Positions 2,140 to 3,543 of a stretch of 14,922 nt of DNA are shown here, in pieces. Source of the stretch: an uncultured archaeon (GTDB lineage Archaea > Thermoplasmatota > Penumbrarchaeia > JASLWR01); assembly GCA_964342815.1 (NCBI GenBank), contig CAYFHS010000030.1, forward strand, positions 33,937 to 48,858. The letters run 5' to 3'. The position numbers and the translations under genes are program-made. Below the pieces are notes generated by a model. That model was not told the origin of the DNA, did not search any database, and saw only the letters and a program-made list of their open reading frames with translations. The first letter of the stretch is position 1, and every line of letters begins with the position of its first letter.

Positions 2140-3543
2140 ATGAGAGGAGTGTTCCAAGTGATAGAGGCTATCGGAAAACGTATAGTCAATGGATATAAGT
2201 TCATTCATCCCATAATAATGGCGGTTTTTATCGCAACCTTTCTTGTGCTCATTACTGTTCTCTCCAGTTTCACTCTCACGGCAACAGTATTCTCGGAAGA
2301 GGGGGGGGGTAAGGAAGCGGCTTCGGCGGGTCTGGCAAATGCCGCAATTTTTCTTATTATAGCCATAGTTGGAGGATTTTTAATATTTCTTTTATTCAAG
2401 TACAAGAAAAAGAACGCAATTCAATATCTATTCGGAAGCGCATTGTCGTTGTCGGGCGGATTCATTCTATTCTTCTTTCTGGTCATTTTAATCGAGGACA
2501 TACGTTACTATTCAAGCGGCCTTATCGTATATTCTTCGTTCCTGGGTGAACGTACGTCAGACCCTTTTTTTCTCGTTTTCAATCAGTCCAACCTTGAACT
2601 TCCTCTATTTCTTTGTTCCATCGCAATCGGTATCGTCATGACCTACATCATACTTTCAGGAAGGTTCAAGGGTGCTCAGAAAAACCGATTTCTGCTATTG
2701 CTCAGCGGACTTATGGGAGCTTTTTTAGCTGTGATATTACCCACATGGACCGTGATGTTCATGCTCATCGGTCTTTCGTTCTACGATATCTATTCCGTCA
2801 AACGCGGCCCTATAAAGAGCATAATCGAGATGACTGAAGAAAACCGGAAAGAGAGAATGAACCGTATCAACCAAAACAGAAAGAGGGATGAGGCACTTTT
2901 GGAAGCTTTCAAGAAACACAACATTATCTGCGTCTTCTGCGAGTCGAACAGGGTAAAGGTGGGACGGGACGATGGCGTGACCTGTCACAATTGCAATCGC
3001 GGGAGCATTATACCAGGTGTTACGGCACTGGTGGTGGATGTAATCGAGAAGTTCGATGCAAGCAACGAGTCAGATAAACCGCATAGGCCACCCATAGCAG
3101 GGAAGAAATCGGGTGATGGGAAGAAGGATAAAAAGGCGATGAAGAGGAACGAGGAAGGGATGAGCCCAGTCATTCCATTCCTGTTCGGGCGGAAAATGAA
3201 TATGAGAAAGAATAGATTTCTTTCGAAAAAGGGTATGGATGCAGAGCACCTGATGAAATCCATGACTTACAACACAGAGCATTGGGACCTTGGTATCGGT
3301 GATCTGGTCTTCTACTCCATGCTGGTGGGCCATTCATTCCAGTTCGGATCGAGCTACTTCGACAAGATAGGAATATTTGCCCCGATACTCATGTTCGGGC
3401 TCTCATTCATCGGGATCGCAACAGGATTCGTGATTACCATACGCCTTCTTGAGAGAAACAAGATATTGCCCGGCTTACCCATGTCGATGTTCATAGGAAT
3501 ATTCGGATTTTCTATCGGGGCCACGATTCTCTGGCTCTGGTAA
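2140..3543 (+). CDS. Presenilin-family (peptidase A22) GxGD intramembrane aspartyl protease with a zinc ribbon in the TM6-TM7 loop
   Basis: Polytopic membrane protein with LSFYD (D216, nt 2785-2787), LGIGDLVFYS (D388, nt 3301-3303) and the PAL-like ILPGLP (nt 3469-3480) in the canonical order. It also has LANAAIFLII..LLFKYKK and ILPTWT..YDIYSVKRGPIKSIIE. The start could be a nearby downstream GTG. Confidence 0.95.
   Translation: MRGVFQVIEAIGKRIVNGYKFIHPIIMAVFIATFLVLITVLSSFTLTATVFSEEGGGKEAASAGLANAAIFLIIAIVGGFLIFLLFKYKKKNAIQYLFGSALSLSGGFILFFFLVILIEDIRYYSSGLIVYSSFLGERTSDPFFLVFNQSNLELPLFLCSIAIGIVMTYIILSGRFKGAQKNRFLLLLSGLMGAFLAVILPTWTVMFMLIGLSFYDIYSVKRGPIKSIIEMTEENRKERMNRINQNRKRDEALLEAFKKHNIICVFCESNRVKVGRDDGVTCHNCNRGSIIPGVTALVVDVIEKFDASNESDKPHRPPIAGKKSGDGKKDKKAMKRNEEGMSPVIPFLFGRKMNMRKNRFLSKKGMDAEHLMKSMTYNTEHWDLGIGDLVFYSMLVGHSFQFGSSYFDKIGIFAPILMFGLSFIGIATGFVITIRLLERNKILPGLPMSMFIGIFGFSIGATILWLW

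Follow-up and report, generated by a model that had tools for sequence, protein, structure and literature searches.

In human presenilin 1 (PSEN1; A22A), the long cytoplasmic loop between TM6 and TM7 contains TMD6a (L268-E277), beta1 (Y288-S290) and beta2 (R377-L381) (PMC10290658), and endoproteolysis has been placed between Thr291 and Ala299 (Podlisny 1997, as cited in PMC13507816); the cut region directly follows beta1. PSH/MCMJR1 of Methanoculleus marisnigri (4HYG), a GxGD protease from archaea that shares the presenilin fold, has a short loop without a ribbon instead; it is probably single-chain and appears not to require endoproteolysis (PMC2947513), and its TM6a contacts the substrate and is required for cleavage (PMC9282858). 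PilD of Pseudomonas aeruginosa (A24), although of another family and fold, provides an earlier example of an intramembrane aspartyl protease with an accessory zinc site. The zinc of PilD is located in a cytoplasmic domain at the N-terminus and does not lie between the aspartates. It serves the methyltransferase activity of the protein and is not required for cleavage (PMC3584216). The literature searched contained no presenilin or SPP in which a folded metal-binding domain separates the catalytic aspartates. The archaeal presenilin described here carries at exactly this place what is probably a Cys4 zinc ribbon, a conserved and family-restricted domain insertion which is apparently undescribed.

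The gene (Table 1) lies in a window of 14,922 nt, the whole stretch of DNA analysed, from an uncultured Thermoplasmatota archaeon. Judged from its sequence, the open reading frame encodes an intact, bona fide presenilin-family GxGD protein, presumably active as a protease. It scores 87.5 bits against Pfam PF01080, above the curated cut-off of 34.3, and human PSEN1 is both its closest solved relative by sequence and the best fold match of the predicted model (5fn3_B; Z 22.7, rmsd 4.7, 260 aligned), ahead of PSH (Z 18.6). Shared with PSEN1 are the nine-TM fold (Z 21–23), the YD, GxGD and PAL-like motifs, TM6a, the predicted beta1 and beta2, the N-in topology and the long TM6-TM7 loop, which is placed in the cytoplasm because basic residues concentrate at the N-terminus and in loops 2, 4, 6 and 8 (positive-inside pattern). 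YD, GIGD and PGL are invariant across 30 homologues, and mean conservation over residues 215–234 is 0.94. The protein falls outside the PSH equivalog family NF041679, against which it reaches 20.3 bits, far below the cut-off of 125. A tblastn search found a single presenilin copy in this genome, and the closest named relative comes from a Thermoplasmatota MAG. Nicastrin, APH-1 and PEN-2 gave no match in the organism's own genome (89% complete), but the controls were silent too. A profile built from short-loop homologues of Thermoplasmatota and Asgard archaea matched human PSEN1 with an E value of 2e-32 and PSH with only 7e-4; by this measure, eukaryotic presenilin is a far nearer relative of these short-loop proteins than PSH is.

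Residues are counted here from ATG 2140 (467 aa) unless said otherwise, as in the preliminary description, whose numbers are exact on that count. Translation probably starts six codons further on, at GTG 2158 (461 aa), which is favoured because a GAGGAG precedes it and the database call is likewise 461 aa; homologues also begin at the equivalent residue. With this start the numbering shifts by six and the true positions of the four cysteines discussed below would probably be C258/261/276/279.

Table 1. Features of the presenilin gene and its insert (window positions; residues counted from ATG 2140)
Feature	Position (nt)	Strand	Basis or remark
Shine-Dalgarno-like GAGGAG	2144..2149	+	8 nt 5′ of GTG 2158
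Presenilin-family (A22) GxGD intramembrane aspartyl protease gene	2158..3543	+	Pfam PF01080 E 1e-24, predicted fold
YD motif, first catalytic Asp D216, TM6	2782..2787 (D216 codon 2785-2787)	+	aligned to PSEN1 YD
TM6a equivalent G223-E234	2806..2841	+	aligned to PSEN1 267-278 region; insert starts right after
Charged helix 1, about 235-259	2842..2916	+	stalk of insert; predicted continuous with TM6a
Cys4 zinc ribbon (probable) 260-291	2917..3012	+	predicted strands, conserved ligands C264, C267, C282, C285
Amphipathic helix 2, 294-308	3019..3063	+	second half of the hydrophobic stretch
Disordered basic linker 309-340, including Lys-rich segment K322-R336 (nt 3103-3147)	3064..3159	+	low pLDDT
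Second conserved hydrophobic patch 343-350, then basic run	3166..3189	+	invariant P346
Predicted beta1 (T376-N378)/short turn/beta2 (383-385) hairpin and GIGD	3265..3303	+	structure model
GIGD (385-388), second catalytic Asp D388, TM7	D388 codon 3301-3303	+	PSEN1 alignment
PGL (444-446), equivalent of presenilin PAL motif, before TM9	3469..3477	+	PSEN1 alignment

Between D216 and D388 the TM6-TM7 loop contains the motif C264-x2-C267-x14-C282-x2-C285 (nt 2929-2994), which is not due to chance, as shuffling the loop 200,000 times yielded any CxxC-x6..22-CxxC in only 17 cases. The charged helix that precedes it, the hydrophobic stretch S289-E303 (nt 3004-3048) and the Lys-rich run that follow it are all present where they had been described. 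The full model has TM6a and the charged helix as a single helix (224–259), strands at 272–274, 279–282 and 288–290, a helix at 294–311, a region of pLDDT below 50 indicative of disorder (314–363) and a hairpin (376–378/383–385). Modelled in isolation by AlphaFold, the helix-ribbon-helix module reaches a pLDDT of 90.7, again with three short strands. The loop is thus predicted to fold as a zinc ribbon, and its cytoplasmic placement by the positive-inside rule is not contrary to zinc binding. The insert probably is a Cys4 zinc ribbon and putatively binds Zn2+, although the bound metal may be Fe in a rubredoxin-like manner.

With classical Cys4 ribbons (RPAB4/RpoP, PF03604; TFIIB, PF08271; eL43/L37ae, PF01780) the domain shares two CxxC knuckles and a small beta-sheet. 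RPAB4 is the best Pfam family for the ribbon in five of the 11 ribbon-bearing proteins (best E 2e-6), with many weak families competing, and eL43 and TFIIB ribbons are the top Foldseek rows (E>0.09). The helix-ribbon-helix module as a whole differs from these in having no significant match in the PDB, the ESM Atlas (TM<0.5) or Foldseek (E>0.09). A VIA fold match (best Z 4.7) was dismissed as helical noise. This absence of fold matches does not show a new fold.

Whether the four cysteines are conserved was assessed in a set of 120 homologues. CxxC-x14-CxxC occurs in ten of them (55–88% identity), which together with the query form the ribbon-bearing set (n=11). All 11 have the cysteines invariant and at the same x14 spacing, and the module 232–308 (77 residues) aligns throughout without a gap at identities of 31–84%. 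Only seven of the 106 positions in 235–340 are invariant, four being the cysteines; S269 and D278 of the ribbon are likewise invariant. The other 109 homologues, with TM6-TM7 loops of 43–219 residues, lack the Cys4 motif and have 13 cysteines in 9,616 loop residues. In a quick tree, from whose alignment the loop was left out, the ribbon-bearing proteins form one clade (SH-aLRT 100) and presence of the ribbon requires one change; on this tree, the module was acquired in a single event by the ancestor of one Thermoplasmatota family. It occurs in 4/4 genomes of that family, which comprise three genera of uncultured marine archaea, and was not found in other families among the 401 genomes of the phylum searched, yet the majority of the remaining class members possess one or two presenilins. 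When 1.84 billion representatives were searched with a profile, the full-length module came up only in the ribbon-bearing clade, matches outside it being generic ribbons or repeats.

Most other families of the class have two presenilins, whereas the family with the ribbon has just one. The second, divergent paralogue (L044-L061, in genomes G003-G036) has WD and GIGD intact, a longer N-terminus and no cysteines in the loop.

For the closest gene pair (distant pairs are saturated), pN/pS is lowest in helix 2 (0.04) and the TM core (0.07), followed by the ribbon (0.12) and residues 341–364 (0.19), and reaches 0.75 in the Lys-rich linker; by these ratios purifying selection acts on the ribbon and on helix 2, not on the linker. 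Conservation of the linker is 0.33, it has many indels of up to about 40 aa, and net positive charge is the only feature kept. The Lys-rich segment, singled out in the preliminary description, would therefore be a near-neutral, drifting linker and not a motif. A feature not remarked on there is the hydrophobic patch 343–350, in which P346 is invariant. Followed by basic residues, it resembles the end of a substrate TM and is possibly a membrane-surface anchor. Short Pro-Leu-Ile patches with basic flanks are present in some ribbon-less relatives (P0023, P0035, P0041, L013 and L057); the patch may predate the ribbon.

Ribbons are not rare in this genome. Of 2,424 open reading frames of at least 150 aa, a census by a simple hydropathy and pattern rule classed 262 as coding for large, type-I-like proteins with a single TM. 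A basic cluster follows the TM in 235 of the 262, and 85 have a Cys4 motif in the cytoplasmic tail, none in the ectodomain. One type of tail ribbon is present in 37/37 genomes of the class, with 30–44 matches in the query's family versus 5–27 elsewhere, a comparison biased by a profile built from this genome and therefore given no weight. Cys4 ribbons are thus a stock cytoplasmic module of the lineage, which makes the one in presenilin less of a surprise and favours an ordinary structural site.

No conserved gene neighbourhood around presenilin was found among the relatives compared. In the window, the gene is flanked by large beta-helix/MAM/PKD surface proteins at 3669-9908 (+) and 2-1723 (-); the one of 2,079 aa has its only TM at the C-terminal end, together with a basic cluster and an acidic tail some 250 aa long. 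Comparable genes flank presenilin in L042 and lie upstream of it in L039, and are common genome-wide. Further along are an 846-aa MMPL/RND-family transporter with a sterol-sensing-like domain (10686-13226, -) and a small open reading frame (about 13613-13750, +) with CxC...CxxC, probably encoding a small zinc-finger protein; it is the end of 13454-13750, the long form of which has no Pfam or NCBIfam match. ARAGORN places a tRNA-Gly(CCC) at 14096-14168 on the + strand, although the sequence may point to the opposite strand.

Since PSEN1 is cut within its loop, and the archaeal loop is long with a stretch, S289-E303, that is hydrophobic in most members (GRAVY 1.15–1.9 in 9/11), autoinhibition and self-cleavage are conceivable here too; the preliminary description had named this stretch as a candidate self-cleavage site, with possible release of a zinc ribbon-bearing fragment. 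The comparison with PSEN1 makes this very unlikely. An aromatic residue occupies the position of Y377 in 117 of the 120 homologues, at a fixed short spacing to GxGD; the predicted beta1 and beta2 are linked by a 4-residue turn in the query, their spacing is fixed in the homologues, and the variable insert is always N-terminal to the predicted beta1. The PSEN1 insert follows beta1 and is self-cleaved, whereas the archaeal insert, with its Cys4 ribbon, would precede it and is therefore probably not homologous to the cleaved segment, on a mapping of beta1 that is model-based (the HMM alignment of short-loop homologues did not itself pair PSEN1 beta1). Where PSEN1 has its autoinhibitory, self-cleaved segment, the 120 archaeal sequences are predicted to have a turn so short and fixed that none would hold a counterpart of the cut region. 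S289-E303 itself is modelled as the last ribbon strand, a turn and the amphipathic helix, its hydrophobic moment is 0.32–0.63 versus 0.05 for PSEN1 283–299, it lies 73–87 residues past D216 (34–42 for the cut region of PSEN1), and in the most distant member (P0011) it has four charged residues. Position, fold and variability thus speak against this stretch as a PSEN1-like cleavage site, as does MCMJR1, which appears to need no endoproteolysis (PMC2947513). A single cut downstream of the ribbon would, moreover, leave it on the TM1-6 half; no soluble ribbon fragment would result, because that half stays in the membrane. If cleavage occurs at all, one may speculate that the conserved patch 343–350, within the disordered tether, is the better candidate.

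We lean instead towards a single-chain enzyme that stays uncleaved and bears an accessory domain with structural zinc, whose stalk is continuous with TM6a and which serves in docking or positioning. A protease that has kept all catalytic elements would have gained a folded cytoplasmic domain at a permissive site between TM6a and beta1: a long helix extends TM6a, the Cys4 ribbon holds one structural Zn2+, the amphipathic helix closes the domain and the disordered basic linker leads back to the beta1/beta2 hairpin. The domain may act as an arm for a partner, a substrate tail or an anionic membrane and, hung directly on TM6a, may tune substrate engagement, which is plausible because TM6a touches the substrate in PSH (PMC9282858). 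Like MCMJR1/PSH, the enzyme would work in one piece, without being cleaved. This picture is supported by the conservation of the insert and by its single origin, its predicted fold, its sidedness and its position; to these we add, by inference, zinc binding, proteolysis, docking and the lack of autoproteolysis. The gene neighbourhood, which is not conserved, offers no partner for such an arm, and the ribbon surface diverges strongly between genera (31–56% identity in distant pairs), so that there is less conservation than expected of a fixed interface; the 11 sequences bearing on the insert are all close kin. Core catalysis in the wider family should not need the insert, as the site is hypervariable (43–219 aa) in relatives. 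That sister clades accept unrelated inserts of such lengths there, that ribbons are plentiful in the lineage and that the conserved positions are mostly fold-determining would also suit a tolerated accretion, taken from the genome's pool and kept for folding or compactness of the loop without a specific regulatory role. This is unlikely given that its length is fixed in 11/11 members, which span three genera, whereas the linker beside it drifts with indels, and that no close donor ribbon was found in the genome (best other match 12.8 bits).

A metal or redox switch, in which helix 1 and TM6a move when the Cys4 site is oxidized or lost and so gate the active site, would be in keeping with the modelled helix that runs straight on from TM6a, the cytoplasmic location and the origin of one close relative from an oxygen-minimum-zone metagenome (ETNP). 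It appears quite unlikely: the ribbon is indistinguishable from ordinary structural Cys4 ribbons (weak matches to RPAB4, TFIIB and eL43), most relatives do without it, and the zinc of the GxGD protease PilD is dispensable for peptide cleavage (PMC3584216). With ribbons a stock cytoplasmic module of the lineage, a docking domain with structural zinc is likelier than the sensor of metal, redox state or ligand that the preliminary description had suggested. The large pool of plausible type-I substrates is the basis of another reading, that the insert is a substrate-selection or gating module with which a single-subunit presenilin carries out regulated intramembrane proteolysis of the approximately 260 large type-I surface proteins and frees their intracellular domains in the manner of Notch, under intracellular control and without nicastrin; this too is rather doubtful.

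The weight of the finding is limited by the narrow distribution of the module, which is confined to one family, and by the commonness of ribbons in the lineage. The clade nonetheless represents a compact, probably single-chain enzyme, nearer to PSEN1 in sequence than PSH is, in a host whose genome is rich in plausible type-I substrates. It indicates that the segment between TM6a and beta1 of presenilins accepts insertions naturally and may have a regulatory role; this site differs from that of the self-cleaved loop of eukaryotes, which bears on the origin of PSEN autoinhibition.
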